From: a bacterium
Lineage (GTDB): Bacteria; Gemmatimonadota; Gemmatimonadetes; Gemmatimonadales; Gemmatimonadaceae
NCBI GenBank assembly: GCA_027484025.1
Contig: JAIXTI010000287.1
Location: 5,137 to 69,136, forward strand
Direction: 5' to 3'
Length of the DNA stretch: 64,000 nucleotides
Position 1 is the first letter of the stretch. Each line of letters begins with the position of its first letter. The translations under genes and the position numbers were made by a program. Of this stretch, positions 8,597 to 49,808 are shown piece after piece. Under the pieces are notes generated by a model. The model saw only the letters and a list, made by a program, of their open reading frames with translations. It made no database searches and was not told where the DNA came from.

Positions 8597-9973
8597 CTAC
8601 TGGTTCTGCTTGAGGTTCGGCAACTTCTCGATGAACGCATGCATCTCGCGCAGCACATCGGCTTCGTGCGACATGAACACCGCGTGATTCGCGTTGGGGA
8701 TGAGCACCACTCTGGCCGTCGGCACGTCGCGCCCGAAGGCGCGCGCCTGCACTTCGGTCGTCTTGTCGGCGTCCAGCATGCCGGCTCGGGTGAGGGAATC
8801 CACGGTTGGCGGAATCAGGTGGGGATACGCATAGATCGCCAGCACCGGCACCGGGATGCGGGTGTGCTTCTGCATGCCGTTGAAGATGTACGTCGGGACC
8901 GCTTCCCAGGCTCGGGACGGTGGTGGCGTTGGCGGAGACGCCGTCAACGCGGCGAGCGAGATCGGCACATCGCGTTGGAGATCCGGCAGCGTGCGCTCGC
9001 GCAACCCGCGAAGCACCGCAATCTGTTCGGCGGGCGATGCACTCGACGCCAGACTGATGGTCTCGAGTTGACGTCGCACCTCGGCAGCACTCACGAACAG
9101 ATCGCCACGCCGGGTATCCTGAAACGCATACACGTATCCCGCGTCGAGATACACGAGCCCCGACACGCGCTCCGGAGCGCGCGCCGCGATGGAGCTCATC
9201 TCTGCGCCGCCGAACGACCAGCCGGCCAACACGGGCTTGGTGAGCTTGAGCGAATCGAGCACGGCGAGGACATCGTTGGCGAGACTATCCGTGCGATATC
9301 CCGTCGACGCAATGGTCGACGCGCCGTAGCCGCGGCGCGAAATGCCGAGCACGCGATACCGCTGCGCGAGCTTGGGGGCGAACGTGTTGAACACGTGCGC
9401 GCTGGAGCCGAGTCCGGGAAGCAGCACGAGTGGACGACCGGTCCCGCCCCAGTCGAGCACCTCGATCTGCACGTCCTTCGCGACGGTGACGAATCGTACC
9501 GTGGGCGCATTGACTGCGCGATACTCGGTCTCGGTGTTGTTGCGTCTCAGTGTGAACGGAAGCGTCGTGGTTCCTGAGCGCGAGCTGCCGGTCATGGTGA
9601 CGCCGTCGGCGTTAGTGCGCACCTCGTAGAGCGTACGCCCACTGAATACCGCGCGAAGTCCGCTGCTCAGCAACTGCACGGTGTCGGCAATCTGTCGGTC
9701 GTCCATCCCGCCCTGATCGAGCTGCACCAGGTACGCGGCCATGCGATGATCCGGCCCCTCGAACACGCGCACGATGATGCGTCGAGGCGTCGGCGACGAG
9801 GCAATGGTCCCCTGATAGTTCCCGACGAGGAACGCGCCGGGCTCCGCCTGCGGTGCCTGCGCTGACATGGCCGGCGCGCCGGCAATGAGTGCAGAGCTAA
9901 CCGCGAGCAAGCGTAATTCGGCGCTGCGCGTAACGGACACGAAGGCAGCGGCGCGAATTCCGCGTGTCAACAA
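8597..9973 (-). CDS. Exported alpha/beta hydrolase (start uncertain)
   Basis: LLPGLG oxyanion motif, GWSFGG nucleophile elbow, ANHAVF catalytic His; extra N-terminal domain. Confidence 0.85.
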   Translation of the reverse strand: MLTRGIRAAAFVSVTRSAELRLLAVSSALIAGAPAMSAQAPQAEPGAFLVGNYQGTIASSPTPRRIIVRVFEGPDHRMAAYLVQLDQGGMDDRQIADTVQLLSSGLRAVFSGRTLYEVRTNADGVTMTGSSRSGTTTLPFTLRRNNTETEYRAVNAPTVRFVTVAKDVQIEVLDWGGTGRPLVLLPGLGSSAHVFNTFAPKLAQRYRVLGISRRGYGASTIASTGYRTDSLANDVLAVLDSLKLTKPVLAGWSFGGAEMSSIAARAPERVSGLVYLDAGYVYAFQDTRRGDLFVSAAEVRRQLETISLASSASPAEQIAVLRGLRERTLPDLQRDVPISLAALTASPPTPPPSRAWEAVPTYIFNGMQKHTRIPVPVLAIYAYPHLIPPTVDSLTRAGMLDADKTTEVQARAFGRDVPTARVVLIPNANHAVFMSHEADVLREMHAFIEKLPNLKQNQ

Positions 9974-9986
9974 GATGCACCGTCTA

Positions 9987-10538: not shown

Positions 10539-12209
10539 CTACGCCTCCGTCATGTCATACGCGAGGTCGTACAGCATGACATCGACCAGCGCGATGAACA
10601 CCTGCAGGAAGAGCGCGACGGAGAACGCGAGCACGCCGACAACAGCCAACAGCGGACCGAAGCGGGTGGGCGAGAACGACAGCACCGACAGCACGCCCAT
10701 GGTTGCGAAGACCGCCACCAGCGGGAACAGAAAGATTGCACCGAACTGCGCAATCGCCATCGTGGCAAACGCGCGCGTCGGGAGTACCCGCTCCATCTCG
10801 GCAAGACGTTCCGGCGGCGTCGCGTCACCACCATGTCGATACACGTCGACATACGCCAACATGTTCTTGACGGCGTTACCCTTGGCGGTGCGCCCCACCG
10901 AGAGATACCGCGTGAGGGCGGTACGCAGCCACGCGATATACAACGCCACGCCGTCGAGTGCACCGCCAGTCGGCCCGACCACCGCGCGCGCAACGTTGCG
11001 CCACTGGATCGTCACGAACGGCCGCTCGCGCAGATCACCAAAGATGGTGGCGATGCTCGCCATGGCGAGCGGCGTGGCCAGCAGCATGGGAACCAGCAAC
11101 ACGAACATCCAGAGCGCCGGCTGCGCGTACCACGGCAGCAGCACGACCGCCGCGCCAATCGCCGCAGCGGCCACTCCCGGCAGGGCAAAGCACACGCCCA
11201 ACATCGACAACTCCGGCATGCGCTCAGCGAAGACGCCCAGCGCCCGCCGCATGCTTTCCCCAAATCCCGACGCGTGCGCGCGCATCGCGGCGGCAAATGA
11301 CGGCGCCGATTGAAAGCGCGTCTCCGGCTCCTTGGCCAGCGCGCGCCGCAGCACCGCTTCCACCTCGGCGGGGACGCCGGCATCTACAGGGAGTGGTGGA
11401 ATCTCCGCCACGAAGTGCTGCCGCAGCAGCGCACGCGTATCCCCGCGGAATGGCAGCGCCCCCGCGAGCATCTGGTATACCACGACGCCGAGGCTGTACA
11501 CGTCGCTGCGCAGATCGACGTTGTCACCAACACACTGCTCGGGTGACATGTACGCGGGCGTGCCAATCGATTCGCCAACCTGTGTTGCGGTCCCCGACGT
11601 CGCACGGTTCGTCGCGCCCTCGCTTTCGACCGGCAAGGCGGCATCCGGCTCCCGTCGCGCGAATGTGTCGTCGCGCAACTTGGCAATGCCGAAGTCGAGC
11701 AGCGTCACATGAAACCCGCTACGTGCGTCCGGCGTGAGCCAGATGTTGGCCGGCTTGAGATCGCGGTGCACCACACCACGCGCGTGTGCCGCCGCCAGGG
11801 CCGCGGCGACCTGCTCGACGATATCCACCACCTGCATCAGCGGCAGTCGCTTGCGCGTTTCGAGGACATCCTCGAGAGTTCCGCCGTGCAGCTGCTCCAT
11901 GACCAGATAGGCCACGTCGTGACCGGCCACCTGGTCGACCCCAAAGTCCGTGACGTTCACCACGTGACGATGCTGAATGCCGCCGGCGGCGCGCGCCTCG
12001 CGCACGAATCGTTCGGCGGCCGTGGCGTCGGCCAGCAGCTCGGGGTGCACCACCTTGAGCGCGACCGTGCGCCCGATGCCCACATGGTCGGCGAGGTACA
12101 CCGCCCCCATGCCTCCTTCGCCGAGCCGTCGCCCTATGCGGTACTTGTCGTGCAGCACGGCACCGGCGAGCCACGGCATGGTGTCAGTGAGCGCATCATG
12201 TTGGGACAT
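10539..12209 (-). CDS. Ser/Thr protein kinase with multi-TM C-terminal region
   Basis: LGEGGMGAVY, HRDLKPANI, LLDFG and GTPAYMSPEQ; several hydrophobic helices after the kinase domain. Confidence 0.92.
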   Translation of the reverse strand: MSQHDALTDTMPWLAGAVLHDKYRIGRRLGEGGMGAVYLADHVGIGRTVALKVVHPELLADATAAERFVREARAAGGIQHRHVVNVTDFGVDQVAGHDVAYLVMEQLHGGTLEDVLETRKRLPLMQVVDIVEQVAAALAAAHARGVVHRDLKPANIWLTPDARSGFHVTLLDFGIAKLRDDTFARREPDAALPVESEGATNRATSGTATQVGESIGTPAYMSPEQCVGDNVDLRSDVYSLGVVVYQMLAGALPFRGDTRALLRQHFVAEIPPLPVDAGVPAEVEAVLRRALAKEPETRFQSAPSFAAAMRAHASGFGESMRRALGVFAERMPELSMLGVCFALPGVAAAAIGAAVVLLPWYAQPALWMFVLLVPMLLATPLAMASIATIFGDLRERPFVTIQWRNVARAVVGPTGGALDGVALYIAWLRTALTRYLSVGRTAKGNAVKNMLAYVDVYRHGGDATPPERLAEMERVLPTRAFATMAIAQFGAIFLFPLVAVFATMGVLSVLSFSPTRFGPLLAVVGVLAFSVALFLQVFIALVDVMLYDLAYDMTEA

Positions 12210-28098: not shown

Positions 28099-28575
28099 TC
28101 AGGCGGTTAGCAGCTGTACCAACGACTGCAGCGCCAGGTTCGGCGTCCCAAAGAACTGCGCATCCACCGCCTCGACCAGCGGCAGCGCGCGGCGCACGAG
28201 ACGCCGACCCGTCGCGGTGGATACGAGGCGCTTTGCGCGCGCGTCGTCCGGATGCGCCCTGCGCTCGACGTATCCTTTGCGCTCGAGCGTGCGCATGACC
28301 TCCGAGGTCATGACCGCATCGGTCGCGGTGTGCGTGGCCACGACGGTTTGCGTAACGGGCACGTCGGGCGACTCCGCCTCGAGCCACACGACCGTTGCCA
28401 GCAACACGAACTGCGCGTGGGTAAGGTCGAGATCGTCGAGCGCCGCCCGGATGGCCCGCTGCCACGCCGATGCCACCTGCCAGAGGAGAAAGCCGGCACT
28501 CTCGGCGGGTCCGGCAAAGCGGGAGCCCACCGCCGTCGCCCCGCGTCCGGCCGCCGCGCGGGAACGCTCAGACAT
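28099..28575 (-). CDS. MarR family regulator
   Basis: SAGFLLWQV...LTHAQFVLL...LERKGYVERR.HP.D.RAKR. Confidence 0.92.
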   Translation of the reverse strand: MSERSRAAAGRGATAVGSRFAGPAESAGFLLWQVASAWQRAIRAALDDLDLTHAQFVLLATVVWLEAESPDVPVTQTVVATHTATDAVMTSEVMRTLERKGYVERRAHPDDARAKRLVSTATGRRLVRRALPLVEAVDAQFFGTPNLALQSLVQLLTA

Positions 28576-33297: not shown

Positions 33298-34542
33298 TTA
33301 TGGGTACAGCGCCGCACGCCGCGCCAACAAGAACGCCCGCACCGCCGGCGACTCCGTAAGCCCGCTCGCCATGTCGTACGCAACCTCGGCCTCGTCGCGG
33401 CGTCCGAGTGCCGCCAGAATGTGCGCCCGCAACGCCCACCACGGCTGGTACGCGCGCACGACATCAGCGGGCAGTGCGTCGATGTGCGCGAACGCTTCCA
33501 GCAATTGCCCCGCCTGCGCCATGACCGCCGCCCTATTCACCGCGACGCCAATCGTGGGCGCGAACGCCCACAACGCGTCGTACAGCGTGAGCAGCGTATC
33601 GGGCGCGACACGATGTCCGCGACGACGGGCGACATGCAGCGACTGAATAGCCGCCTCCGTCTGGTAACGCCCTGGTGACAACAACTTCGCCGCCCGCACC
33701 AACAAGCGCTCGGCGTCGGCAATCGCGTTCTGATCCCACGCGTCGTGCTGCTGCTCATCGAGCGGCACATAGCGGCCGTCTGCCGAGTGTCGCGTGGTAC
33801 GACGCGCATGGCAATACAGCATGAGGCTCAGGAGTCCGAGCGCTTCCGCCTGTTCCGGCAAGGCGTCCACCACCACCTGCGCCAACCAGATCGCCTCGTC
33901 GGCCAGCACAATCTGCGACGAGTCTCCACCAGTCACCGCATCCCACGCCGTCCCGAAGGCGGCGTAGATGGCGTCGAGCACGGTGGGCACGCGCGTGGCG
34001 AGTTCAGAGGCCTCCGGTAGCGCAAAGCGAATGCCGGCATCACGCAGCTTCTGTTTGGCCCGCACCAAGCGTTGCGCCATGGCCGACGGCTTGACCAGAA
34101 ACGCCGCCGCAATGCGGTCCGCGTCGAGCCCGAGCACCACCTGTAGCATGAGTGGCGCGTGCACCGCCTGATCGATGGCCGGATGCGCACACGCGAACAA
34201 CAGCATCGCGCGCTGGTCCGGCAACGCCGGGCTCTCAGCGGTGGCGTCGGGGCGCAACAGTGTGGCCGCATATTCGAGCGCCGGTGCGGCCGTGTTCACC
34301 ACCGCGGCGTGTCGCGCCGCATCGGCCAACCGGCGGCGTGCGACGGCGAGCAGCCACGCATCGGGATGGTCAGGCACCCCCGCGGTTGGCCACTGCTGCA
34401 GCGCCGCCGCGAACGCGTCACTCAGCGCATCCTCGGCCTCCGCGACATCGCGTGTGCGCGCCGCGAGCGTCGCCACCAGACGACCGTAGGCGCTCCGTGC
34501 CGCCCATTCGACGGCACGGAGCGCCGGGGTGCTGTCGCTCAC
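33298..34542 (-). CDS. ECF42-type sigma factor with C-terminal TPR extension
   Basis: YGRLVA.L...AEDAL..AF..AL..WP..G.P..P.AWL; LLFACAHPA; AQRLVRAK; GRYQ.EAAI; GTG start overlaps the yciI stop. Confidence 0.9.
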   Translation of the reverse strand: MSDSTPALRAVEWAARSAYGRLVATLAARTRDVAEAEDALSDAFAAALQQWPTAGVPDHPDAWLLAVARRRLADAARHAAVVNTAAPALEYAATLLRPDATAESPALPDQRAMLLFACAHPAIDQAVHAPLMLQVVLGLDADRIAAAFLVKPSAMAQRLVRAKQKLRDAGIRFALPEASELATRVPTVLDAIYAAFGTAWDAVTGGDSSQIVLADEAIWLAQVVVDALPEQAEALGLLSLMLYCHARRTTRHSADGRYVPLDEQQHDAWDQNAIADAERLLVRAAKLLSPGRYQTEAAIQSLHVARRRGHRVAPDTLLTLYDALWAFAPTIGVAVNRAAVMAQAGQLLEAFAHIDALPADVVRAYQPWWALRAHILAALGRRDEAEVAYDMASGLTESPAVRAFLLARRAALYP

Positions 34543-34904
34543 GCGCCAATCGGGGGCGGCGGCAACATGGGGCGCACCTCCACCGAGCCGGTGGCGGCCG
34601 CCGGACAGCGCGCCGCCCACGCCAACGCGGCATCGAGGTCGGGGACGTCGATCATGAACAGCCCGCCGAGCAATTCCTTGGTCTCCGTAAACGGGCCGTC
34701 CTGTACCAGACGCTCGTTACCGCGGAGGCGCACCGTGGTGGCCATGGCCGGTGCATGCAGCCCCGCACCACCACGTGCGACGCCAGCCTCTACGAGGGCC
34801 TGTGAGTACGCGGTGTACGCCGCCCAATACGCGGGCGCACGGGTGGGATCTTCGCGCGCCGCGAGTTCGGCGGGTGTTTCGTATACGAGAATGGCGTAGT
34901 TCAT
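34539..34904 (-). CDS. YciI/DGPF family protein
   Basis: DGPFTETKELLGG motif; WAARCP...VEVRP. Confidence 0.92.
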   Translation of the reverse strand: MNYAILVYETPAELAAREDPTRAPAYWAAYTAYSQALVEAGVARGGAGLHAPAMATTVRLRGNERLVQDGPFTETKELLGGLFMIDVPDLDAALAWAARCPAAATGSVEVRPMLPPPPIGA

Positions 34905-35888: not shown

Positions 35889-36461
35889 TTAAGCCAACCA
35901 CTCCTCGCGCAAGATGCCGTACCACACTTCGTCAATCAGTTCGCCGCGGGTGGTGCGGTTCTGCCGAAGTGTTCCTTCGCGGACAAGACCGATCTTCTCC
36001 ATGACACGCTGCGACGGGACATTGCGAACGTCGGCCATGGCCCGCACGCGAACGAGCTGCTGGCGCGCGGTGAATGCCGTATCCAGCACGGCCCGCGCAG
36101 CCTCTGTGGCGTACCCCTGCCCCCACACCCACGGCGCCAGTGACCACCCCAGCTCGCCAATCATGCCGTCGCAGACGAACCGTATGTTGATGCCGCCCAC
36201 CACCGTATCGTCCAACGTGATCGCCCACGCCTCATGTACAACGGGATCCAACGCCTTCATGGCGGCGACAAACTCCACCGCATGATCGCGAGTGTACGGC
36301 ACGGGTACAGGCAGGTAGCGACTCCACGGCTCGAGCGTAGCGTACGCGACAATGTGATCGACGTCGCCATCGCGGTAGGGCCGGAGCACGAGACGGGGCG
36401 TTATGAGCCGCTCGGGAGATGACGACACGGGTCTGAACTGTCGCAGAGGCTCTGGGGGCAC
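35889..36461 (-). CDS. GNAT N-acetyltransferase (RimJ/RimL-like)
   Basis: T.RLVLRP, ELGWSL....WGQGYATEA, N..SQRVMEKIG...EG.LR. Confidence 0.9.
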   Translation of the reverse strand: MPPEPLRQFRPVSSSPERLITPRLVLRPYRDGDVDHIVAYATLEPWSRYLPVPVPYTRDHAVEFVAAMKALDPVVHEAWAITLDDTVVGGINIRFVCDGMIGELGWSLAPWVWGQGYATEAARAVLDTAFTARQQLVRVRAMADVRNVPSQRVMEKIGLVREGTLRQNRTTRGELIDEVWYGILREEWLA

Positions 36462-36617: not shown

Positions 36618-37010
36618 TCATTCGGTCGTCTTGCCGTCGAAGTGCTCGGTATCTTCTTCAGCAGCAGCCCGCGTGCGGTGCACCACGCCATCCAGATGAT
36701 TAGGCGGCGCGTACAGCGTGTAGAGCTTGAGCGGCGCGGTACCCGTGTTGACAATGTTGTGCCGTGCACCGGCCGGCACCACGATCGCAAAACCTTCGTG
36801 GATGGTGGTGTGCACTCCATCGATGATCGCTTCGCCATCTCCCTGCTCTACGCGAAAGAATTGATCGAGCGTGTGCACCTCCGCACCGATCTCTTCCTGT
36901 GGCTTGAGCGCCATCACCACGAGCTGGCAGTGCTTGGCAGTGTAGAGCACCTGCCGGAACGCCGTGTTCTCCACCGCGATCGTTTCGATGTTCTGGATGT
37001 ACCCTTTCAT
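36618..37010 (-). CDS. Cupin domain protein
   Basis: FRQVLYTA.H.QLVVM.L, EIGAEVH..DQFFRVEQG, PLKLYTLYAPP.H. Confidence 0.9.
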   Translation of the reverse strand: MKGYIQNIETIAVENTAFRQVLYTAKHCQLVVMALKPQEEIGAEVHTLDQFFRVEQGDGEAIIDGVHTTIHEGFAIVVPAGARHNIVNTGTAPLKLYTLYAPPNHLDGVVHRTRAAAEEDTEHFDGKTTE

Positions 37011-37087
37011 GTGTGCTCTCTGGCCATAGGCGACGACGGCGCACGACCGGTGTCGGGCGCTGTCTCCTGTGGGTGCAAGAGATGCGC

Positions 37088-37570
37088 CTACCCTCCACCG
37101 CCGAGCTGGCACCCATCCGCTACAGTGCCGGTGTATCGCACGAACAGCAGAGTGCGACTGACGAACAGCACGCGCGCCGAGACGTGCATACTGTCGGGCG
37201 TGAGACGAGCCGTCGCGGATATCGTGCGGCCGGCCTCTGGTGGACTGAGCCGCCCCGTCCATCGTTGCTGTCGAGTGTCCCACGTGAAGTTGTGGAACAG
37301 GCGCGAACCACAGCGAGGCGCGGCGCCGTCCTTCGGCTTTTCCGCCGGGAGGCCGACAAGAACGCCGCACCACGGCCCCTGCGCCCCGTCCGCCGCTGAA
37401 CCGCAGGCGCCCATGCGCACCACCGCCCCCTTCTGCGGATCCCACCACAATCCGTCTGGCGCGCGCGGCGGGGCCGACTGTGCACCCAGTACGCCACACC
37501 ACGGGGGGCCTAGAGCCGTCGCGACACACAGCCCGGCCACGGTACGCCAAAGACTCGAAAGTTGGGACAT
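37088..37570 (-). CDS. DUF2147-like exported protein
   Basis: G.W......VV....CG....CG.L...W.G.L..PE.GRT pattern. Confidence 0.7.
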   Translation of the reverse strand: MSQLSSLWRTVAGLCVATALGPPWCGVLGAQSAPPRAPDGLWWDPQKGAVVRMGACGSAADGAQGPWCGVLVGLPAEKPKDGAAPRCGSRLFHNFTWDTRQQRWTGRLSPPEAGRTISATARLTPDSMHVSARVLFVSRTLLFVRYTGTVADGCQLGGGG

Positions 37571-37661
37571 ACACCACGAGTGAAGGTCAGACAACGAATC
37601 ACCGCATGAGCGGCGTGTGGCAGGGTGTACCGGCAGCCGCCGCCCGGCGTTAGCACCGCCC

Positions 37662-37690
37662 CCTAACATTCCCCCAGCCTCGGCGGTACA
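37662..37690 (+). promoter_or_regulatory. Candidate ECF promoter CCTAACAT-N14-CGGTACA (copy 1)
   Basis: Directly upstream of the ECF gene; same motif and spacing as 39238-39266. Confidence 0.65.
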
Positions 37691-37705
37691 TGGTGAGAAC
37701 GACCC

Positions 37706-38326
37706 ATGTCACCAGCCGACGCCAACGCCCCGGGCTCCGCCACCCCTGTGCCGAACAGCGCCCCCGCCGATCTCGCGACCGCCGAAGAGCGGGCGCTGAC
37801 CGCAAGGGTGGTGCTGGGCGATCGGGACGCGTTTGCCCTGCTGGTGGGTCCACATCTGGCGCGTGCCCTGTTGCTGGCCCGACGCCTGCTCAAGAACCAC
37901 AACGATGCTGAAGACCTGGTGCAGGACGCGGCGCTTCGGGCGCTGGAGCGCTTCGACCAGTTCGACCGGTCGCGGTCGTTCGCTCCCTGGTTCATTCGGC
38001 TGCTCATGAACCTCGGCTTGCAGCAGCAGGAGAAGATCGGCCGCCGCTCCCACGAACCCCTGGAGCTGCATACCGCCGAGGTAGACCGACAACAGGAGCC
38101 GGAGAGCGCCGACTTCTGGCACGCCTTTCACGAGGCCGTCGATACGCTGCCGGCGCGACAGCGCTCGATCATCATGCTCTTCGATGTCGACGGCTATTCC
38201 GGCGCCGAGATCGCGGACCTGCTTGGGATCTCGCCCGAGAATGTCCGCTGGCACCTGCACACCGCGCGTCGCACGCTCCGGCCTCTATTGCGGGCGTACC
38301 ACCCTGACCCGAACTTCCACCCGTGA
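37706..38326 (+). CDS. ECF RNA polymerase sigma-70 factor
   Basis: GD.DAF..LV, DAEDLVQDA.LRA, F.PW..R, region 4 GYSGAEIA..LGIS...VRW.LH.AR..LR. Confidence 0.92.
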   Translation: MSPADANAPGSATPVPNSAPADLATAEERALTARVVLGDRDAFALLVGPHLARALLLARRLLKNHNDAEDLVQDAALRALERFDQFDRSRSFAPWFIRLLMNLGLQQQEKIGRRSHEPLELHTAEVDRQQEPESADFWHAFHEAVDTLPARQRSIIMLFDVDGYSGAEIADLLGISPENVRWHLHTARRTLRPLLRAYHPDPNFHP

Positions 38327-38338
38327 ACGGATCGCCTC

Positions 38339-38785
38339 ATGCCCACTGATTCCACGTCGCCGCCGCCGGACGACCCGGTGCGCGAGCCTATCCTGTCTGC
38401 GGCGCTCACCGCCGTCGACCGCGAGCATACGGTAAGCGCCGAGTCGCTGCAGCGCCTCGAGCAACGGCTGGCCGCCGCCCTCGCGGTGACAGCGGCGCGG
38501 ACGCCAGCCCCTGCGCCAGTGCTGGCCCCCAGTGCGGGGAACAGCCTCGCCAATGGCATCGTGCTCTGCTTGCAGCGCACGCAGCGGTGGGCGCCTGCCG
38601 CCGCCGTAGCGGCGGCCGCGGCGGTGCTGGTCGCGCTCTCCATGACGCCTCCACGCGCGGCGACCACGTCCGTGTCGCTTGTGGCGTACGCCGGTGGACG
38701 AACGGGCGCCGCGCTGCTGGCGGACGAGGCGCTTGGGCTGAACGTGACCCCTGCGCAAATGCTCGGCAAAGGAGCGGCGCAATGA
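38339..38785 (+). CDS. Putative single-pass anti-sigma factor
   Basis: Follows the ECF gene; one TM segment (WAPAAAVAAAAAVLVAL). Confidence 0.6.
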   Translation: MPTDSTSPPPDDPVREPILSAALTAVDREHTVSAESLQRLEQRLAAALAVTAARTPAPAPVLAPSAGNSLANGIVLCLQRTQRWAPAAAVAAAAAVLVALSMTPPRAATTSVSLVAYAGGRTGAALLADEALGLNVTPAQMLGKGAAQ

Positions 38786-39222
38786 ACACGCCACCGTCCG
38801 CGCGTCCGCCGCGCAGTGCGATGTTGATCTTCGCGGTGCTGCTCGTGTCCGCCGCAGGCGCGGGCGTGGCGCTCGACCGCGTGTATCTCGCACGTAGCGG
38901 ACAGCTGGGACTCCCAGGGATGACGGGAGCGCCACCCGTATCTCGTCCATCAGAGGAACAGCTCACCGAAATCTTCGAGGTGCTGCGCCGTGAGCTTGGA
39001 CTCCGCGACGATCAGGTGCCGGCCGTGCGCCGTATCATTGCCCTGCAAATCGATGATCTCGAACGTTTGCGCCGATCACTGCGCCCGGAAATCGATAGCA
39101 TCTTCGAAGTGACGCGCGACTCGCTCGACGTGGTACTCGACGCGGCGCAACGCGCACGTCGTGATGCATTGCTTGCCAAGATGGCGCCCCTGACCGACTC
39201 GGCGGGGCTGCGACGCCGCTGA
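38782..39222 (+). CDS. Periplasmic Spy/CpxP/ZraP-like sensor
   Basis: ATGA overlap; TM/signal segment; LRRELGL.DDQ...VLDAAQRAR LTxxQ-like motifs. Confidence 0.7.
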   Translation: MNTPPSARPPRSAMLIFAVLLVSAAGAGVALDRVYLARSGQLGLPGMTGAPPVSRPSEEQLTEIFEVLRRELGLRDDQVPAVRRIIALQIDDLERLRRSLRPEIDSIFEVTRDSLDVVLDAAQRARRDALLAKMAPLTDSAGLRRR

Positions 39223-39237
39223 CACGCGCGACACGCG

Positions 39238-39266
39238 CCTAACATCGTCGTCCGCCCGCCGGTACA
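39238..39266 (+). promoter_or_regulatory. Candidate ECF promoter CCTAACAT-N14-CGGTACA (copy 2)
   Basis: Upstream of the ABC exporter operon; identical motif and spacing to 37662-37690. Confidence 0.65.
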
Positions 39267-39354
39267 GACTCGTGCGGGGCGGTGTTCCACCGGCCACCTC
39301 GTCGTCTTCGCGGAGCCTTGAGCGAGGCGTAACGACCGGTGGCAGGACAGTCAC

Positions 39355-40479
39355 ATGGGACGTATCGCGATCGCCATGCTCGTACGAGATGGCAGCCGCT
39401 ACCTCGGTTTGGTGGTGGCACTCGCCTTTACCGCGCTGGTCATTACCCAGCAGCCAGCCACGCTGCTCGGTGTCATGGCACGCACCACCGCGCTCATTCG
39501 CGACACGGGCGGCGTGGATCTGTGGGTCATGGATCCCAAGGTGCTGTACGTGGAAGAGCCCAAGCCCATGGTAGACGGCATGCTGTATCGCGTACGGGGA
39601 GTGCCCGGTGTCGCGATGGCCGCACCGTTTTATAAGGGGCAGGCTCGGGTGCGGCTCTCCGATGGCTCGTTTCAGAATTGCGAGATCATTGCCGTCGATC
39701 CGGCGTCGTTCATTGGCGCACCATCACGCCTGTCGCCGAGCAGCCTGGCGGCGTTGCGCGAGAGTGATGCCATTCTGGTAGACCGGGCCGGTGCACGCAC
39801 GCTGCAAAACACGACAGTAGGCGCCACCGTAGAACTGAACGACACCCGTGCGCGCGTGGTGGGGTTGTACGATGCGTCGGCGGGCTTTCAGACACTGCCA
39901 CGCCTGTACACCGCGTGGACGCGCATTCGCAACTTCGTACCCGCCGAGCGCAAGATGCTGTCGTATGTGCTGGTGCAACTCGCGCCCGGCTACGACGCGG
40001 AACAGGTCGCGCGCGACATCGAGCAGCGCACTGGCCTGCAGGCCGTCCCCACGCAGCGTTTTGCCGCGATGACACGCGATTGGTTCCTCAAGAACTCCGG
40101 CGTCATGGCCACGTTCTTCGGGTCGAGCCTCATTGCGATGCTCATCGGCATCTTCATTGCCGCGCAGACGTTCCGCAACTTCACCATCGATCACATTCGT
40201 TACTTCGGTGCCATTGCGGCCATGGGCGCGTCGTTTGGCCAACTCGTGCGCATGGTGTTGCTGCAGGCGGGGATGGCGGGCGCCGTTGCGACCGGCATTG
40301 GTGTCGGCGCGGCTTCGCTGATCTCGTATGGCTCCCGCTCGTCCGAAGTGACTTCGAACATTGCGCCGTGGCAGCTCGGACTGTCCGTCGCGGTCATGCT
40401 CTGTGTGGGTGGTGCTGTGGCGCTGCTCTCGGTGCGTAAGCTGCGCGGCCTCGAGCCGGCTGCTGTGTTCCGGGGCTGA
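39355..40479 (+). CDS. ABC exporter permease (FtsX/DevC-like)
   Basis: N-terminal TM, periplasmic domain (DLWVMDP...VRGVPGV), and three C-terminal TMs. Confidence 0.88.
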   Translation: MGRIAIAMLVRDGSRYLGLVVALAFTALVITQQPATLLGVMARTTALIRDTGGVDLWVMDPKVLYVEEPKPMVDGMLYRVRGVPGVAMAAPFYKGQARVRLSDGSFQNCEIIAVDPASFIGAPSRLSPSSLAALRESDAILVDRAGARTLQNTTVGATVELNDTRARVVGLYDASAGFQTLPRLYTAWTRIRNFVPAERKMLSYVLVQLAPGYDAEQVARDIEQRTGLQAVPTQRFAAMTRDWFLKNSGVMATFFGSSLIAMLIGIFIAAQTFRNFTIDHIRYFGAIAAMGASFGQLVRMVLLQAGMAGAVATGIGVGAASLISYGSRSSEVTSNIAPWQLGLSVAVMLCVGGAVALLSVRKLRGLEPAAVFRG

Positions 40480-40482
40480 TCC

Positions 40483-41271
40483 ATGGCCTCGCTCACATCA
40501 CACGCCAACACGACAGCGGCCATGCCACTCGCCGTCGAATGCCGCGGCATTTCGCGCGGCTTCGATAGCGCCACTGGACGTATACCGGTGCTGCAAGGCG
40601 TCGATCTTGCTCTCCCCGCTGGCGAAGTCGCCATGCTGCTGGGTCCATCAGGGTGCGGCAAGACCACACTCATTCAAATCCTGGCGGCCATGCTCGATGC
40701 CGACGCCGGAGACTGCACCGTGTTCGGCACCACCATTACCGCCATCAGTGCCGTTGCACGCACGCAATTTCGTCAGCGCATGATCGGGTTCTGCTTTCAG
40801 CAGTATCAACTCATTCCGACACTCACGGCTGCGGAGAACGCCGCGATTCCGCTGCTCATTGCCGGCGTCCCCATGCCGCGCGCGGTGGAGCGGGCGCGGC
40901 ACGAACTCGATGCGTTGGGGCTCGGCGACCGGACCGGATATCGCCCCAACCAACTCTCCGGCGGACAACAGCAACGCGTTGCCATTGCCCGCGCGGTGGT
41001 ACACGAACCGCGACTGGTGGTGTGCGACGAACCCACCAGCGCGCTCGATCACCGCGCCGGTCAAGCGGTCATGACGCTGCTGCGGGAGCGAATCGTTCGC
41101 CCCGACCGGTGTGTCATCATCGTCACGCACGACAATCGCATTCTCTCGTATGCCGACCGCACCTGCCACATGGAAGACGGTCGCATCACGGCGGTAGAAG
41201 GCACCGACGCTCGGCAACACTCCACGCGCTCGTCTGCGGATTCCGCGGCGACAGCGCTGAACGCTCACTGA
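40483..41271 (+). CDS. ABC exporter ATP-binding protein (DevA/LolD-like)
   Basis: [32 protein letters not shown]. Confidence 0.93.
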
Positions 41272-41280
41272 AGAACTCCC

Positions 41281-42264
41281 ATGCGTACCAGTATTCTTGC
41301 GCGCGCGCGCACCCTCGGCAGCCGTCACGTGTTGCATGCCCTCGCCATTGGAGGAACGCTCACTGCGTTGCTCGTGTCTTTCTCGTCGGCACCCGCAGCG
41401 CAGCCGGCCGCAGTGCGCTCCTCGCCACCGCCCGCTATCCCGTTTCGCGACTACGTCTCCGGGGCGGCGCTCATCGAGTCCGCAAATAAGGACGTGCTGG
41501 TCGCGGCACCGGCCGCGGGGGTGCTGTCGGCCGTACACGTGCAGGTGGGCGATGACGTGAAGGCTGGCGACCCACTGTTCACACTCGATCAGCGCGCTTC
41601 ACAGGCGGAGGTGGCGACGCGCCACGCCGCACTCGCCGTGGCCCGCGCGGAGTTGACGGAACTGCAGGAGTCCGTCAACAAGGCCACACTCGAAGAGCAA
41701 CGTGTGAGCATGGTCGACGACCCACGCGCCGTGAGCGACGAAGAGCGCACGACCCGCCGGAGCGCGCTCCGTTTGGCGCAGGCGCAGGTCGCCACCGCGT
41801 CCGCGAGAGTAGAGGCGCGCACGGCCGAGCTGGAGGCGGCGCAGGTAGCGCAACGTGAACGCGTGGTGCGGGCGCCCATGAACGGCACCGTGTTGAGCGT
41901 ATCGGCGCGTCCCGGTGAGGCGGTAGGTGGGAGCGGCAGCAGTGCGCCGATACGGCTGGGTCGTGTCGATCGGCTCCACGTGCGGGTGGATATCGACGAG
42001 AACGACGCCTGGCGCATTCGTGCCGGCACGCGTGCGCGCCTCATCATGCGCGGCAATGATCGCCTTACGGCCGACTTGGAGTACGAGTATACCGAGCGTT
42101 ACGTGCGCCCCAAGACGTCACTCACCGGTGCCTCGACGGAGCGTGTCGACACTCGCGTGCTGCAGCTGGTCTACTCGCTGCCTTCGGATCGCTTGCCGCT
42201 GTACGTGGGGCAGCAGGTCGATGTGATCGTGGAGATCGTCAAACCCAAGACGGAGGGGCAATGA
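41281..42264 (+). CDS. HlyD/periplasmic adaptor subunit
   Basis: Lipoyl-like V.VGD.VKAG..LF.LD, coiled coil, RAPMNGTV, ERVDTRVLQ. Confidence 0.9.
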   Translation: MRTSILARARTLGSRHVLHALAIGGTLTALLVSFSSAPAAQPAAVRSSPPPAIPFRDYVSGAALIESANKDVLVAAPAAGVLSAVHVQVGDDVKAGDPLFTLDQRASQAEVATRHAALAVARAELTELQESVNKATLEEQRVSMVDDPRAVSDEERTTRRSALRLAQAQVATASARVEARTAELEAAQVAQRERVVRAPMNGTVLSVSARPGEAVGGSGSSAPIRLGRVDRLHVRVDIDENDAWRIRAGTRARLIMRGNDRLTADLEYEYTERYVRPKTSLTGASTERVDTRVLQLVYSLPSDRLPLYVGQQVDVIVEIVKPKTEGQ

Positions 42265-43610
42265 TCACGCGTCAGCACCGATTGGCCGTGGGGGTGTGCG
42301 CGCTCCTGCTGAGCGCGGCATGCGGCGGCCGTAGCCAGCCGTCTGTGTCACCAGTCCCCGTCGCGACGGCCGCCGACTCCAATGCGGGGTGGTGGCGAGG
42401 GTTTGGCTTGCCGGCGCTCGATACGCTCGTTGATGCCGCGTTGAAGAACAACCCCGATATTCAGCTGTCGATTGCCCGACTGGCCGAAGCGCGCGCCACG
42501 ATGCGCGGCACCAATGCCAATTGGGATCCGAGCGTGTCGCCGACTGCCTCGTATACCAGATCGGAACAGGTGATCGGTAACTTCGGGGCCATCTCTACCA
42601 CCGTGGCGAGCGTGTCCACCACGGCCTCATGGGAGCTGGATCTCTTTGGTCGCTTGCGAAAGGAGCGTGCGGCCGGTGTGGCCGACGGGATTACGGCGGC
42701 GTACGATGCGGCCGACGTGCGACGCACTACCGTGGCGGAGATCGCGCGTGTCTACTTCGATGTCCTCAGTACGTCGCACGAGGTAGCGGTACTCGAAGCG
42801 CAACGCATGGCGCGTCGTACCGCACGGTCGCTCGAGGCGAGTCGCGCACGGGTCGGATTGAACGGCGGCAGTGATTCCCTTCGTGCCGATGGCGACGAAC
42901 GCAACGTGCTCGTGCAGTTGACCACCGTACGCGCCCGTCGCGCCGAGCTGCTGTCAGATCTCGCAGCGCTCACGGGGAGCTCCATCGTGTGGGTCGACTC
43001 GGTCGTCGCACTGACGGCACGTCTGGAAGTACGCGTGCAAGTCCCCGAGAACGGAATCCCGGCCGATTGGTTGCGCTTGCGCCCGGATGTCCGCGCTGCT
43101 GAGTCGCGAGTGGTGGCGGCCGCTGCTCGTGTAGAGGCGGCCAAGCGAGCCTTGCGCCCGAGCCTGTCGTTGGCCGGCAGTACCGGGCGCAACCGGACGA
43201 ACGAAAGCAGCTGGGTGCCCACGTGGTCGTTCGGGCCCTCGCTCGCCATCAACGTGCCCACGCGAGCCGGTCGCGCGCAGGTGAGTGTGCGCGAGGCGCA
43301 ACTCAGTCAACGCGAGATCGAGTGGCGTCAGGCCGTGCGTGACGCGGCATCTGACGTGGAAGTCGCGTTTGCCCGCGTGCGGGAATTCGAAGAGCGCCTC
43401 AAACGTCAGCGCGAATCCGTCTCGGGGTATCAGGCCATGGTGTCGCTGTCACAGTCGCGATTCACCAGCGGATTGGCAGACTACCGAGCGGTCCTCGATG
43501 ATCAGCGCACCCTGCTGGAGGCGGAGCGTACGCACGTGGAGTACTGGACTGCGTACGCCAAAGCGGTAGTGACGCTGATGCAGGCCACGGGAGCGCCGGA
43601 AGTGCGTTGA
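42261..43610 (+). CDS. TolC/NodT family outer-membrane efflux lipoprotein
   Basis: Lipobox LSAAC, WW..F..P.L..LV..AL.NN.D, WELDLFG, LRPDVRAAE. Confidence 0.92.
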   Translation: MITRQHRLAVGVCALLLSAACGGRSQPSVSPVPVATAADSNAGWWRGFGLPALDTLVDAALKNNPDIQLSIARLAEARATMRGTNANWDPSVSPTASYTRSEQVIGNFGAISTTVASVSTTASWELDLFGRLRKERAAGVADGITAAYDAADVRRTTVAEIARVYFDVLSTSHEVAVLEAQRMARRTARSLEASRARVGLNGGSDSLRADGDERNVLVQLTTVRARRAELLSDLAALTGSSIVWVDSVVALTARLEVRVQVPENGIPADWLRLRPDVRAAESRVVAAAARVEAAKRALRPSLSLAGSTGRNRTNESSWVPTWSFGPSLAINVPTRAGRAQVSVREAQLSQREIEWRQAVRDAASDVEVAFARVREFEERLKRQRESVSGYQAMVSLSQSRFTSGLADYRAVLDDQRTLLEAERTHVEYWTAYAKAVVTLMQATGAPEVR

Positions 43611-43673
43611 TGGGGCGAGGTGCTATCGTACAGCGGCAACGCTTGTACGCCGATTCACCACACCTGCCGCCCC

Positions 43674-44237
43674 ATGCCCATCACTGTCGGCGAAACCCTC
43701 AAGGCTCCCACTCGCGCCGTGTGGCGCGAGTGGCTCATCGCGCACCACGCTGACAAACGGGAAGTCTGGCTTATCGCCGATGACCGCCCCGACGTCCCCA
43801 CGGTGGACTACCTCGACGCGGTCGAAGAAGCGCTCTGCTTTGGATGGATTGACAGCATCGCCAAACGCCTCAACCCCACCGAACGGGTACAGCGTTTCTC
43901 CCCTCGTCGCGCCAAGAGCAACTGGACGGAACTGAACAAGGCGCGCGCGCGACGACTCATCGCGCTGGGGCTCATGACCGACGCCGGTCGCGCCACGCTC
44001 CCCGATCTCGATGCGCCGTTCGTGTTGGCCGACGACATACGGCAGGCGCTCGTCGCCGCTGGCGCGTGGGATTTTTTTGCGGCGACACCGCCGCTCTACC
44101 AACGCGTACGCGCCGGCTACGTGGAGGAGCAACGCCGCGTGCCCCTCGAATTCACCAAACGTCTGAACAGCTTGCTGGAGAAGAGTGCGGCCGGCAAGCT
44201 GTTCGGCGGCTGGAACGATGGTGGGCGGTTGGGCTGA
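43674..44237 (+). CDS. YdeI/OmpD-associated family protein
   Basis: R..WR.WL..HH, Y.DAVEEALCFGWID, RFSPRR.KS.W...N. Confidence 0.88.
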   Translation: MPITVGETLKAPTRAVWREWLIAHHADKREVWLIADDRPDVPTVDYLDAVEEALCFGWIDSIAKRLNPTERVQRFSPRRAKSNWTELNKARARRLIALGLMTDAGRATLPDLDAPFVLADDIRQALVAAGAWDFFAATPPLYQRVRAGYVEEQRRVPLEFTKRLNSLLEKSAAGKLFGGWNDGGRLG

Positions 44238-44660: not shown

Positions 44661-44716
44661 CGCTTGATCCGCCGTGCGCTCATTTCTGGCGCGATGACCG
44701 CACGGGCGATCAAGCC
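44661..44716. promoter_or_regulatory. Inverted pair of mar/sox/rob-box-like sites
   Basis: GCTTGATCCGCCGTGCG (44662-44678) and CGCACGGGCGATCAAGC (44699-44715) are 15/17 complementary. Confidence 0.55.
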
Positions 44717-44792
44717 GCCGCCCGCAGGCCGTATCATCTTTGTGGACGTTCATCCTTTCGCATACCACTACTGCTCTGAAACGGCGACGGCC

Positions 44793-45629
44793 ATGACCGA
44801 CAGTCCCCCCCGCCACATTCCGTGGGTGGAGCGCATGCTCCGCACGCTCGATCACATCCACACGCATCTCGACGCCGACGTGAACCCGGCGGAGCTCGCG
44901 CGCCTCGCCGGCTTTTCGCCGCACCATTTCCATCGTGTATTCCGCGGCATGGTCGGCGAGTCCGTCATGGGTTACGTGCGGCGCCTCCGTCTCGAACGGG
45001 CCGCGCTGCGCCTCAAGCATGGTGAGGCGTCGGTCTCTGCCGTGGCCATCGATTCCGGCTACGGGTCGCACGAAGCGTTCACCCGTGCGTTTCGTGAGCG
45101 CTTTGGAATAGTGCCCAGCGCATTTCGCGACACGGGCATCGCCAGCGAGCCGCCCATTCGTTTGTTGCGTGAGCCGGAGCGGCAGTTGCTTGCGGCACGC
45201 CACATTGGCGCCTACGAGGGCGTCGGCGCCGCATGGGAAACGCTCATTGGCGTCGCCGGACGCTTGGGCTGGTTGGCCACACCGCCCACCACCATGGGGC
45301 TGGTGTACGACGATCCCGACATCACCGAGGCGGCCCAGTGCCGCTACGAAGCCGCCATTGTCGTGCCCGACGGACAACCAGCCGTCGTCCCGGAATGGGC
45401 GCCGCCCACCATGATCGTGCGTACACTTCCGGCGGGTACCTGGGCCTGCCTGGTGCACGTGGGCGGCTACGACAGTATCCAGTCGACCTACGACGCATTG
45501 CTCGGGCAAGCGCTGCCACGTCGAGGCATCGAGCTCGCCGACGAACCCACCGTAGAAGTCACCCTCGACGATCCGCGCACCACGCCGCCCGATCGGCTGC
45601 GCACGGACATCCGCGTGCGACTCACATGA
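44793..45629 (+). CDS. AraC family regulator with GyrI-like effector domain (Rob-like architecture)
   Basis: LA..AGFSP.HFHRVF, A...G..SHEAFTRAF..., then H.G.Y...G...YDDP..T...CRY. Confidence 0.92.
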   Translation: MTDSPPRHIPWVERMLRTLDHIHTHLDADVNPAELARLAGFSPHHFHRVFRGMVGESVMGYVRRLRLERAALRLKHGEASVSAVAIDSGYGSHEAFTRAFRERFGIVPSAFRDTGIASEPPIRLLREPERQLLAARHIGAYEGVGAAWETLIGVAGRLGWLATPPTTMGLVYDDPDITEAAQCRYEAAIVVPDGQPAVVPEWAPPTMIVRTLPAGTWACLVHVGGYDSIQSTYDALLGQALPRRGIELADEPTVEVTLDDPRTTPPDRLRTDIRVRLT

Positions 45630-49152: not shown

Positions 49153-49731
49153 TCAGTCATCGGCGAACAGTTCGCGCAGGGGCATTTCGAACCCCGGCAG
49201 TACGGAATCGCCGCGCAGCGTGTCACCGATCTCGAGCACCGAGATGCTGCCATCGGCGCGATACACCACGACCTGCTCACGATCGGGATCGATACTCCAC
49301 ACGAGCAGCGTCCCCGCTTCGAGCCAGGTGCCCACTTTGGTGATCACCGCACCGACCCGATCGCTGGGTGAGCGCACCTCAATGGCAAGATCGGGGGCGA
49401 ACGCCGGAAACCCATTGGGGATTGGCGCGGGGTGGCGCTCACGCGAGACGTAGGCGAGATCGGGCGCGCGGACAGTGTCCGGATTGCGGGCCAGCGTAAA
49501 GCCGGGGTCGAGCGTGGCGAGGCGGCCGCGCCTGGTGGCCCATCCATTCGCCTGCTGCTCCTTCGCCAGATGAATACCGAGCGCAGTGCCGAGCCGGAGG
49601 CCAACGTCGCCATGTCGAAAGCTCGCCGGTTCGCGTACCACGACCTGCCCGCGTACGAGCTCAACACGCTTGCCGGGTACGTGGTAGCCGACCAACTGTT
49701 CGGCCGTCATGACATCGGGAGCGGTAATCAT
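49153..49731 (-). CDS. Uma2 family PD-(D/E)xK endonuclease-like protein
   Basis: ELVRG, VRAPDLAY, PDLAIEV.SP, VWSIDP, VLPGF. Confidence 0.88.
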   Translation of the reverse strand: MITAPDVMTAEQLVGYHVPGKRVELVRGQVVVREPASFRHGDVGLRLGTALGIHLAKEQQANGWATRRGRLATLDPGFTLARNPDTVRAPDLAYVSRERHPAPIPNGFPAFAPDLAIEVRSPSDRVGAVITKVGTWLEAGTLLVWSIDPDREQVVVYRADGSISVLEIGDTLRGDSVLPGFEMPLRELFADD

Positions 49732-49808
49732 GCGGTGTCTCCGCCGTGACGATTGGGTTCGAGTCATTCCCAACGGTAGGTACGTACCGTCAGCGCACCG
49801 TCAGCACG

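Follow-up and report, generated by a model that had tools for sequence, protein, structure and literature searches.

The stretch of DNA analysed here, called the window in the following, comprises 64,000 nucleotides (64 kb) of contig JAIXTI010000287.1 (assembly GCA_027484025.1) from a bacterium of the family Gemmatimonadaceae. Our subject is a gene cluster in which an operon for an extracytoplasmic function (ECF) sigma factor and two partner proteins is followed on the same strand by the operon of a tripartite ATP-binding cassette (ABC) exporter, and in which both operons are preceded by the same promoter-like motif. A gene coding for a secreted DUF2147 protein diverges from the sigma gene. 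We refer to the two partner proteins by their gene position as +1 and +2, and to the sigma gene together with these two as the triad. The features are (positions in the window):

37088-37570, minus strand: secreted DUF2147 (lipocalin-like) protein of 160 amino acids (aa) with a signal-peptide-like N-terminus (Pfam DUF2147, PF09917, 29.7 bits, passing the gathering cut-off of 27)
37626-37654, minus strand: candidate third ECF promoter, GCTAACGC-N14-CGGTACA, 55 nucleotides (nt) upstream of the DUF2147 start codon
37662-37690, plus strand: predicted autoregulatory ECF promoter with the -35 box CCTAACAT, a 14-nt spacer and the -10 box CGGTACA, ending 15 nt before the sigma ATG
37706-38326, plus strand: ECF sigma factor, 206 aa (Pfam Sigma70_r2 44.6 bits, Sigma70_r4_2 55.9 bits; TIGR02937 89.1 bits, cut-off 42.9)
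38339-38785, plus strand: putative membrane anti-sigma factor (+1), 148 aa, one transmembrane (TM) segment, no family match
38782-39222, plus strand: small envelope protein (+2), 146 aa, LTXXQ/Spy/CpxP superfamily, hydrophobic at the N-terminus (anchor or signal) and carrying two LTXXQ motifs in degenerate form
39238-39266, plus strand: predicted second ECF promoter, boxes identical to those of the sigma promoter, 15 nt past the stop of the LTXXQ gene and 88 nt before the permease ATG
39355-40479, plus strand: ABC exporter permease with MacB_PCD (46 bits) and FtsX (41 bits) domains, a single FtsX unit
40483-41271, plus strand: ABC ATPase (Pfam ABC_tran 115 bits; DevA family 208 bits, cut-off 295.8; next MacB and LolD)
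41281-42264, plus strand: periplasmic adaptor, a membrane fusion protein (HlyD_3, HlyD_D23, Biotin_lipoyl_2; RND_mfp 85 bits, cut-off 94.9; DevB 65.3 bits, cut-off 129)
42261-43610, plus strand: NodT-type outer-membrane channel (OEP E = 9e-41, 140 bits; TIGR01845 outer_NodT 222.6 bits, cut-off 210.05), its start overlapping the stop of the adaptor gene

An earlier note on this DNA, made from the letters alone, had named the sigma factor, the permease, the ATPase, the adaptor and the outer-membrane protein; the Pfam and NCBIfam models bear out these gene calls.

The exact motif CCTAACAT-N14-CGGTACA is present in two copies in the 64 kb, at 37662-37690 and at 39238-39266, both on the plus strand. 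The 8-mer and the 7-mer with their identical 14-nt spacing thus stand exactly where the earlier note had placed them. The letters of the spacer differ between the copies (TCCCCCAGCCTCGG versus CGTCGTCCGCCCGC). At the base composition used (A and T about 0.175, C and G about 0.325), about 4e-5 chance second copies are expected in the 128 kb of two-strand sequence. A scan of the window with the core pattern CTAACA-N16-GGTAC, proposed in the same note, yields three matches with at most one mismatch where 0.22 are expected, and three matches were reached in 0 of 100 shuffles. The third match, which the note had overlooked, is the site at 37626-37654 on the minus strand. It stands back to back with the sigma promoter, with 7 nt between the two -35 boxes.

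The consensus is CC[T/C/A]AAC for the -35 box, with 16 nt between the AAC and the -10 CGGTA. An AAC within the -35 box, a CGTA-like -10 box, fixed spacing and a position just 5′ of the sigma operon are all found, as in autoregulated ECF promoters. In SigW promoters the AAC and the CG of the -10 box are likewise separated by 16 nt. That the AAC would fit the logic of ECF promoters had been suggested before, and it agrees with the AAC of the -35 consensus of both SigW (TGAAAC) and SigE (GGAACTT) (PMC6713349). Sigma-70 promoters are not predicted in either intergenic region, nor is there a predicted terminator to separate the sigma and exporter operons (39222-39355). Downstream of the exporter promoter a TGCGGG(G) block at 39274-39281, 8-14 nt past the -10 box and near the expected transcription start, is kept in all five exporter promoters compared (window, L081, L083, L173 and L088; L numbers denote homologous loci). 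The 88-nt exporter leader itself gave no Rfam match and no convincing conserved fold (-4 kcal/mol, the covariation term being positive). Two further candidate sites were rejected: a match with three mismatches at 28115-28143 (minus strand) lies inside the 3′ end of a gene and faces a convergent gene, and a match of 14.4 bits to the position weight matrix (PWM) at 34030-34058 (minus strand) is at the noise level (12-14 bits; shuffles give 9.7 matches per 231 kb).

The same arrangement is found in relatives. A DUF2147 gene divergent from the sigma gene, which is followed by the TM protein, the LTXXQ protein, permease, ATPase, adaptor and channel, is also present in Gemmatimonas groenlandica (L081/L082) and in a relative at 67% identity (L083/L084). 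In locus L088 (56%) the gene order is retained from sigma as far as the outer-membrane channel, and so it is in the truncated contig L173, where only the end of the sigma gene is left. Synteny holds within the module, and the flanking genes differ. The sigma factor is 93% identical to the protein of G. groenlandica, and the region was also detected in lake metagenomes; the host of the circuit is a freshwater Gemmatimonas. Most conserved within the module is the permease, with 97% identity to G. groenlandica, 86% to L083 and 54% to L088.

When the five orthologous exporter leaders are aligned (sigma identity 56-93% in the four loci with a complete sigma gene), only CC[T/C]AACATC, CCGGTAC and the TGCGGG block are conserved, in contrast to the diverging 14-nt spacer and flanks. 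With autoregulatory sites as its sole training set, a PWM assigns 21.7-22.9 bits to the exporter sites of L083, L173 and L088. The cross-genome scan that the earlier note had called for was also productive. A site equivalent to the sigma promoter lies 5′ of the sigma operon in nine further loci (L081, L085, L086, L087, L088, L169, L170, L171 and L172). Distant Gemmatimonadota homologues (38-49% identity, among the matches listed) gave 13 motif matches of at least 14 bits in 425 kb, distributed over 12 of 28 loci; this set represents outgroups, the closest relatives not being among the matches listed. All but one of these 13 matches share the strand of the sigma gene and precede it by 100-850 nt; the remaining one, in L011, faces a divergent pump operon. 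In L002, L004, L007, L010, L012-L015, L017 and L020, which are largely from Longimicrobium/Longimicrobiaceae, the distance from the promoter to the downstream sigma gene is about 580-850 nt, which implies an additional first operon gene, as in L172.

The promoter variants also change together. Within each genome the promoter of the sigma operon and those of the adjacent targets have their -35 variant in common. This variant is CCTAAC in the window, G. groenlandica, L083 and L173, CCCAAC in L088, L170 and L171, and CCAAAC in L172 at three of four sites, the weak fourth one having TCAAAC. At both promoters of L170/L171 the -10 CGGTA is jointly replaced by [C/G]TGTAG. We regard this co-variation as the best argument that the adjacent sigma factor, and not a paralogue, would read these sites. 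Given conserved boxes, drifting spacers, co-varying variants and a sister clade (L170/L171) with the motif on both strands, the proposal of the earlier note that the motif is an ECF-type promoter for the sigma operon and the adjacent exporter can be maintained. That one ECF promoter type would serve both operons is in our view well supported.

The sigma factor consists of regions 2 and 4 only and is thus a member of the ECF (group 4) branch of the sigma-70 family. The nearest solved structure is SigW (E = 1e-15); CnrH (E = 4.6e-9) ranks behind SigW, SigE and SigH. The +1 protein has a conserved N-terminal segment (DPxRD..L..AL..VD), a variable linker, one TM segment and a periplasmic tail of about 45 aa, as seen in the alignment of the orthologues. 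Neither Pfam (E up to 1) nor NCBIfam nor the PDB gave a match for the window copy and ten orthologues, and the zinc-finger motif HxxxCxxC or another Cys/His motif is absent from these 11 proteins. A PDB profile match of the +1 protein to a trimer of cytochrome c555, with E = 3e-4 and without any single stretch that passed by itself, was discarded, as it looks like a low-complexity, Ala-rich artefact. In the window and in all ten orthologous loci fetched, the stop of the +1 gene overlaps the start of the +2 gene by 4 nt (ATGA), which suggests that both proteins are made and act together. From its position, the one-TM topology, the conserved N-terminal motif and the ATGA coupling with the LTXXQ gene we infer that the +1 protein is an anti-sigma factor.

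For the +2 protein the earlier designation as Spy/ZraP-like is right at the family level. Pfam LTXXQ matches 6 of 11 orthologues (best E = 8.7e-7), and a profile of the orthologues matches Escherichia coli Spy (PDB 3oeo) with E = 9e-5. The family has a conserved N-terminal hydrophobic segment followed by GVAxDR. In the window copy the two motifs are degenerate (LGLRDDQ and VLDAAQR), and neither His nor Cys occurs among its 146 aa. On these profiles the protein is placed, at the family level, in the LTXXQ/Spy/CpxP superfamily.

The exporter is a MacB-type (type VII) tripartite ABC exporter, in which the ATPase is separate, unlike in E. coli MacB. The earlier label DevBCA-like stands at the level of the superfamily and not beyond. 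The best NCBIfam model for the permease is indeed DevC, with 41.6 bits against a cut-off of 290.35, and for ATPase and adaptor DevA and DevB rank first or close to it; all three Dev models remain far under their cut-offs, and the gene order differs, being permease, ATPase, adaptor and outer-membrane protein. The likeness to DevBCA-HgdD, the cyanobacterial heterocyst glycolipid exporter, and to MacAB-TolC consists in an FtsX-type permease with a periplasmic core domain, an ATPase which is separate or fused, a membrane fusion protein and a TolC/NodT channel. It differs from DevBCA in the order C-A-B-outer-membrane protein instead of B-C-A.

The DUF2147 gene is a candidate third member of the regulon. 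A lipocalin fold is stated for DUF2147 (bioRxiv 10.1101/2025.07.29.667474). Homologues divergent to sigma are 67-68% identical in L081/L082 and 38% identical in L083; no DUF2147 homologue was detected in L088. The boxes of the third site are kept between the window and G. groenlandica, and the spacer changes. Further, the exporter operon of L170/L171 likewise ends in a DUF2147 gene. DUF2147 is thus found twice in different positions, and this recurrence supports the weak third promoter, which we nevertheless consider the least secure element of the circuit.

Outside the nearest relatives the triad is found with other outputs. In L170/L171, whose sigma is 54-55% identical, it diverges from an operon for OEP, membrane fusion protein, ABC ATPase, a MacB-type permease of 416 aa and DUF2147, and each strand of the short intergenic region carries the motif. 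L011 is laid out alike, with its motif facing the pump operon, and in L001 MacB-type pump genes lie upstream of sigma on the opposite strand. In L008 and L016 three genes follow immediately on the triad; they code for an outer-membrane protein, an adaptor and a protein of 1036-1052 aa, the size of a resistance-nodulation-division (RND) permease. The large gene of L008 codes for a multidrug-type RND permease (RND_permease_2 1217 bits, MdtB/C-like, versus 402 bits for the CusA/CzcA family). L172, a Gemmatimonadota genome of 5.3 Mb, carries CCAAACGT-N14-[C/T]GGTAC at 5821-5849 (minus), 7195-7223 (plus) and 9535-9563 (plus). The units behind these sites are a 243-aa gene with the sigma operon, a 1255-aa CarboxypepD_reg protein, and an operon for a TonB-dependent receptor, DUF4249, DsbD and thioredoxin; the local regulon would therefore consist of outer-membrane proteins and not of a pump. 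Conversely, the cassette of permease, ATPase, adaptor and channel is widespread in metagenomes (35-46% identity among the matches listed) with no sigma gene adjoining. Triads with varied outputs and cassettes without a sigma gene together show that triad and pump are separable modules; their joining has occurred repeatedly, each time by way of this promoter.

We consider it likely that the locus is a self-contained ECF sigma circuit in which the same promoter type would drive the sigma operon, the exporter and, through a weaker copy, the DUF2147 gene. We suggest that it operates in the following way. In the resting state the one-TM +1 protein would hold the sigma factor at the membrane, and the LTXXQ protein may modulate this hold from the periplasm, by analogy with CpxP and CpxA or CnrX and CnrY. 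An envelope insult would then release the sigma factor. As the signal one may think of envelope proteins that have misfolded or of toxic compounds of hydrophobic or amphipathic character; because of the pump types found with the triad we prefer organic toxics or envelope-protein damage to metals, and this is the most speculative step. RNA polymerase with the released sigma factor would fire the sigma's own promoter and supply more sigma together with its inhibitors, a feedback. It would also raise the exporter, which could clear its substrate from the periplasm or the outer leaflet through the outer-membrane channel. Probably it would drive the DUF2147 gene as well, the product of which may act as a carrier. 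Since no terminator is predicted after 39222 and a putative RNA contig crosses 39161-39395, transcription reading through from the sigma operon probably supplements that from the internal exporter promoter.

Several observations weigh against this circuit or parts of it. The close orthologues L085, L086, L087 and L169 possess the triad with no pump beside it. In L083, with sites at 9956-9984 and 11560-11588, the exporter promoter is a perfect copy of that of the window, and the sigma-proximal -35 is degenerate (CCTATC, CCTATCGC); autoregulation may be weakened in this lineage. The third site scores 13-14 bits with the PWM, which is chance level, and a DUF2147-facing site was not found in L083. 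The assignment of the +1 protein as an anti-sigma factor is based on position and topology. The window copy of +2 is itself below the Pfam LTXXQ threshold, and its AlphaFold model is uninformative, with a mean predicted local distance difference test score (pLDDT) of 60 (70-83 in the helical hairpin core) and nothing below E = 2.7 with Foldseek against the PDB; with so weak a model the LTXXQ/Spy placement rests on the profiles. Finally, the 235-nt contig X22, from a run flagged as possible RNA and from a strain similar to G. groenlandica, reaches from the end of the LTXXQ gene across the internal promoter into the start of the permease gene, with differences within the motif confined to the spacer. 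It spans the internal promoter rather than starting there and, if it is RNA, represents read-through.

In another explanation, read-through from the sigma promoter accounts for essentially all expression of the exporter, as part of an operon of seven or eight genes, and the internal motif is redundant or inactive. X22 and the missing terminator between 39222 and 39355 would fit, as would L008, where the pump genes overlap the LTXXQ gene directly and leave no room for a promoter. However, five orthologues retain the internal boxes without any change although spacer and flanks diverge, which is unexpected for a neutral site. X22, besides coming from a different strain, may be DNA carry-over. We therefore think that pure read-through is unlikely. 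Still less do we expect that the second copy of the motif arose by chance, or that the motif is part of some short dispersed repeat, with no role in regulation. High-GC genomes are rich in short repeats, which makes this a general possibility. Yet only the two boxes of 7-8 nt match and the 14-nt spacers differ, the expected number of chance copies is minute (see above), and sites are conserved in position and orientation in at least ten genomes. Leader conservation and the co-variation within genomes effectively refute such a repeat, which is extremely improbable.

The motifs could also be real ECF promoters which are read by a paralogous ECF sigma factor encoded elsewhere, the adjacent sigma having another regulon. 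Gemmatimonadota carry many ECF sigma factors with AAC/CGT-type promoters, a second sigma-like gene lies in the window at 33298-34620, and extra ECF paralogues are located near the homologues in L012-L014 and L086. Against such a paralogue, the motif tracks the orthologues of this very sigma factor across unrelated genomic contexts, and the lineage-specific -35 and -10 variants change together at its own promoter and at the neighbouring targets, so that we hold this explanation to be quite unlikely. A further alternative, built on a parallel drawn in the earlier note, is a metal sensor in the manner of CnrYXH, in which the +2 protein would bind a periplasmic metal and free the sigma factor via the anti-sigma factor, and in which the pump would export this metal, either as such or chelated. 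The metal ligands of CnrX are side chains of His, Glu and Met. The layout of sigma factor, small TM protein and small periplasmic protein fits, and Pfam Metal_resist (the CnrX family) matches two of 11 orthologues, weakly (E at least 0.027). In addition, the architecture with a "heavy-metal resistance protein" at +2 is read as metal-related by Casas-Pastor et al. (PMC7826278). But the window protein is devoid of His and Cys, LTXXQ/Spy is the stronger family signal, the sigma factor is nearer to SigW and SigE than to CnrH, and the gene order is not that of cnrYXH. The pumps found with the triad are DevCA-like ABC, MacB-type ABC and multidrug-type (MdtB/C-like) RND pumps, that of L008 being the RND one, and not of the Czc/Cus type. 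The metal-sensing parallel is thus weak and not supported, and we judge a metal sensor to be very improbable.

The circuit with its predicted ECF promoters can be compared with several known systems. CnrYXH-CnrCBA of Cupriavidus metallidurans (ECF291) shares with it an ECF sigma factor, a short one-TM anti-sigma factor, a small periplasmic helical modulator and an adjacent tripartite efflux pump. The short conserved cytoplasmic segment of CnrY is comparable in size to that of the +1 protein. In the window the order is sigma-first, the similarity to CnrH is distant, the metal-ligand residues are missing in +2, and the output is an ABC pump and not a Czc-type RND pump. The CpxP/Spy/ZraP group is likewise characterised by a helical protein with LTXXQ motifs which is encoded within the regulon it probably feeds back on. 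In the window, in contrast, this protein partners an ECF/anti-sigma pair and not a two-component kinase, and its LTXXQ motifs are degenerate.

The resemblance to sigmaW-RsiW lies in SigW being the closest solved sigma factor and in the promoter shape AAC-N16-CG(G)TA. Bacillus subtilis sigmaW reportedly has yknWXYZ as a target. This is a MacB-type ABC pump with an HlyD-like adaptor, which sigmaW induces and which is protective against toxic compounds. RsiW differs from the +1 protein as a zinc-binding class I anti-sigma factor cleaved by regulated proteolysis, an LTXXQ partner is not part of the system, and the host is monoderm and has no outer-membrane channel. In Pseudomonas aeruginosa the ECF sigma factor PvdS controls another MacB-type tripartite ABC exporter, pvdRT-opmQ. 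PvdS is an iron-starvation sigma factor without this triad, and the exporter recycles pyoverdine. ECF control of MacB-type pumps therefore has precedents.

Closest in architecture are the groups ECF281 and ECF290 of the ECF classification 2.0, in which the gene for the anti-sigma factor is followed by one for a "heavy-metal resistance protein" (main text of Casas-Pastor et al. 2021, PMC7826278); there, ECF291 (CnrH) is given with a full metal pump operon. As in the window, the sigma factor stands at position 0, the anti-sigma factor at +1 and a CnrX/LTXXQ-type protein at +2, and an autoregulated promoter is predicted from sequence. At the gene-family level the window +2 protein corresponds to that of ECF281/ECF290, the window copy being below threshold. 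The +1 proteins differ, as the main text of the classification gives a zinc-finger (ECF281) or RskA-like (ECF290) anti-sigma factor, whereas the 11 orthologues of the window +1 protein have no Pfam match and no HxxxCxxC. A linkage to a pump and DUF2147 is not mentioned for the two groups in that main text. To call the circuit undescribed, as the earlier note did, was consequently too strong: the sigma/anti-sigma/+2 architecture has been catalogued computationally (PMC7826278), and MacB-type pumps have the precedents given above. New are the unclassified putative anti-sigma factor, the LTXXQ partner free of metal ligands, and the DevCA-like ABC pump and DUF2147 as predicted outputs; the kind of system is known.

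The circuit is thus a clean example rather than a surprise and leaves the understanding of ECF signalling unchanged. We know of no experimentally characterised ECF regulon in Gemmatimonadota, a phylum which is abundant in soils and lakes. The locus offers a complete, testable circuit with a sigma factor, three candidate promoters of defined consensus and defined outputs, and the consensus CC[T/C/A]AAC-N16-CGGTA can be used for regulon prediction in complete genomes of the group. That the triad is paired again and again with pumps of unrelated types points to a general sensor for efflux induction. The recurrence of DUF2147 beside MacB-type pumps yields a definite working hypothesis on the function of this uncharacterised domain, and the pair of sigma factor and promoter could serve as an orthogonal expression switch. 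One may speculate further, although we put this forward tentatively and think it rather less probable than not, that the triad is a portable, pump-agnostic efflux sensor of Gemmatimonadota with one co-evolving promoter wired to DevCA-like ABC, MacB-type ABC and multidrug RND pumps. The DUF2147 lipocalin would then be the periplasmic substrate carrier for the ABC pumps, and +1 would represent a new class of anti-sigma factors, the tail of which is read by a Spy-like chaperone.

Two more genes adjoin the module on the transcribed sides:

36618-37016, minus strand: Cupin_2 gene (Pfam Cupin_2 E = 4e-15), 71 nt past the end of the DUF2147 gene, which has the same orientation
43620-44237, plus strand: gene with an OmdA/YdeI domain (Pfam OmdA E = 1e-6), 10 nt past the outer-membrane gene

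The Cupin_2 gene is absent at this position in G. groenlandica (L081/L082) and is possibly a passenger of the divergent transcript. The OmdA/YdeI gene is possibly co-transcribed with the exporter; it is absent at this position in L081, L083 and L088 and is outside the conserved module.

Among the other genes of the window, the second sigma-70-like gene (33298-34620, minus strand) codes for 440 aa with Sigma70_r2, a weak r4_2 and a C-terminal DUF6596; it is of the ECF type with a fused extension and unrelated to the circuit. A putative endonuclease of the Uma2 family (49153-49773, minus strand) and a GNAT protein (Acetyltransf_3; 35889-36461, minus strand) are ordinary neighbours with no link to the circuit. 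Just 3′ of the pump operon, at 44664-45629 on the plus strand, lies a gene for an AraC-family regulator with a GyrI-like small-molecule-binding domain, which is not conserved beside the module in the relatives. The combination of AraC and GyrI-like domains is typical of regulators that sense xenobiotics.

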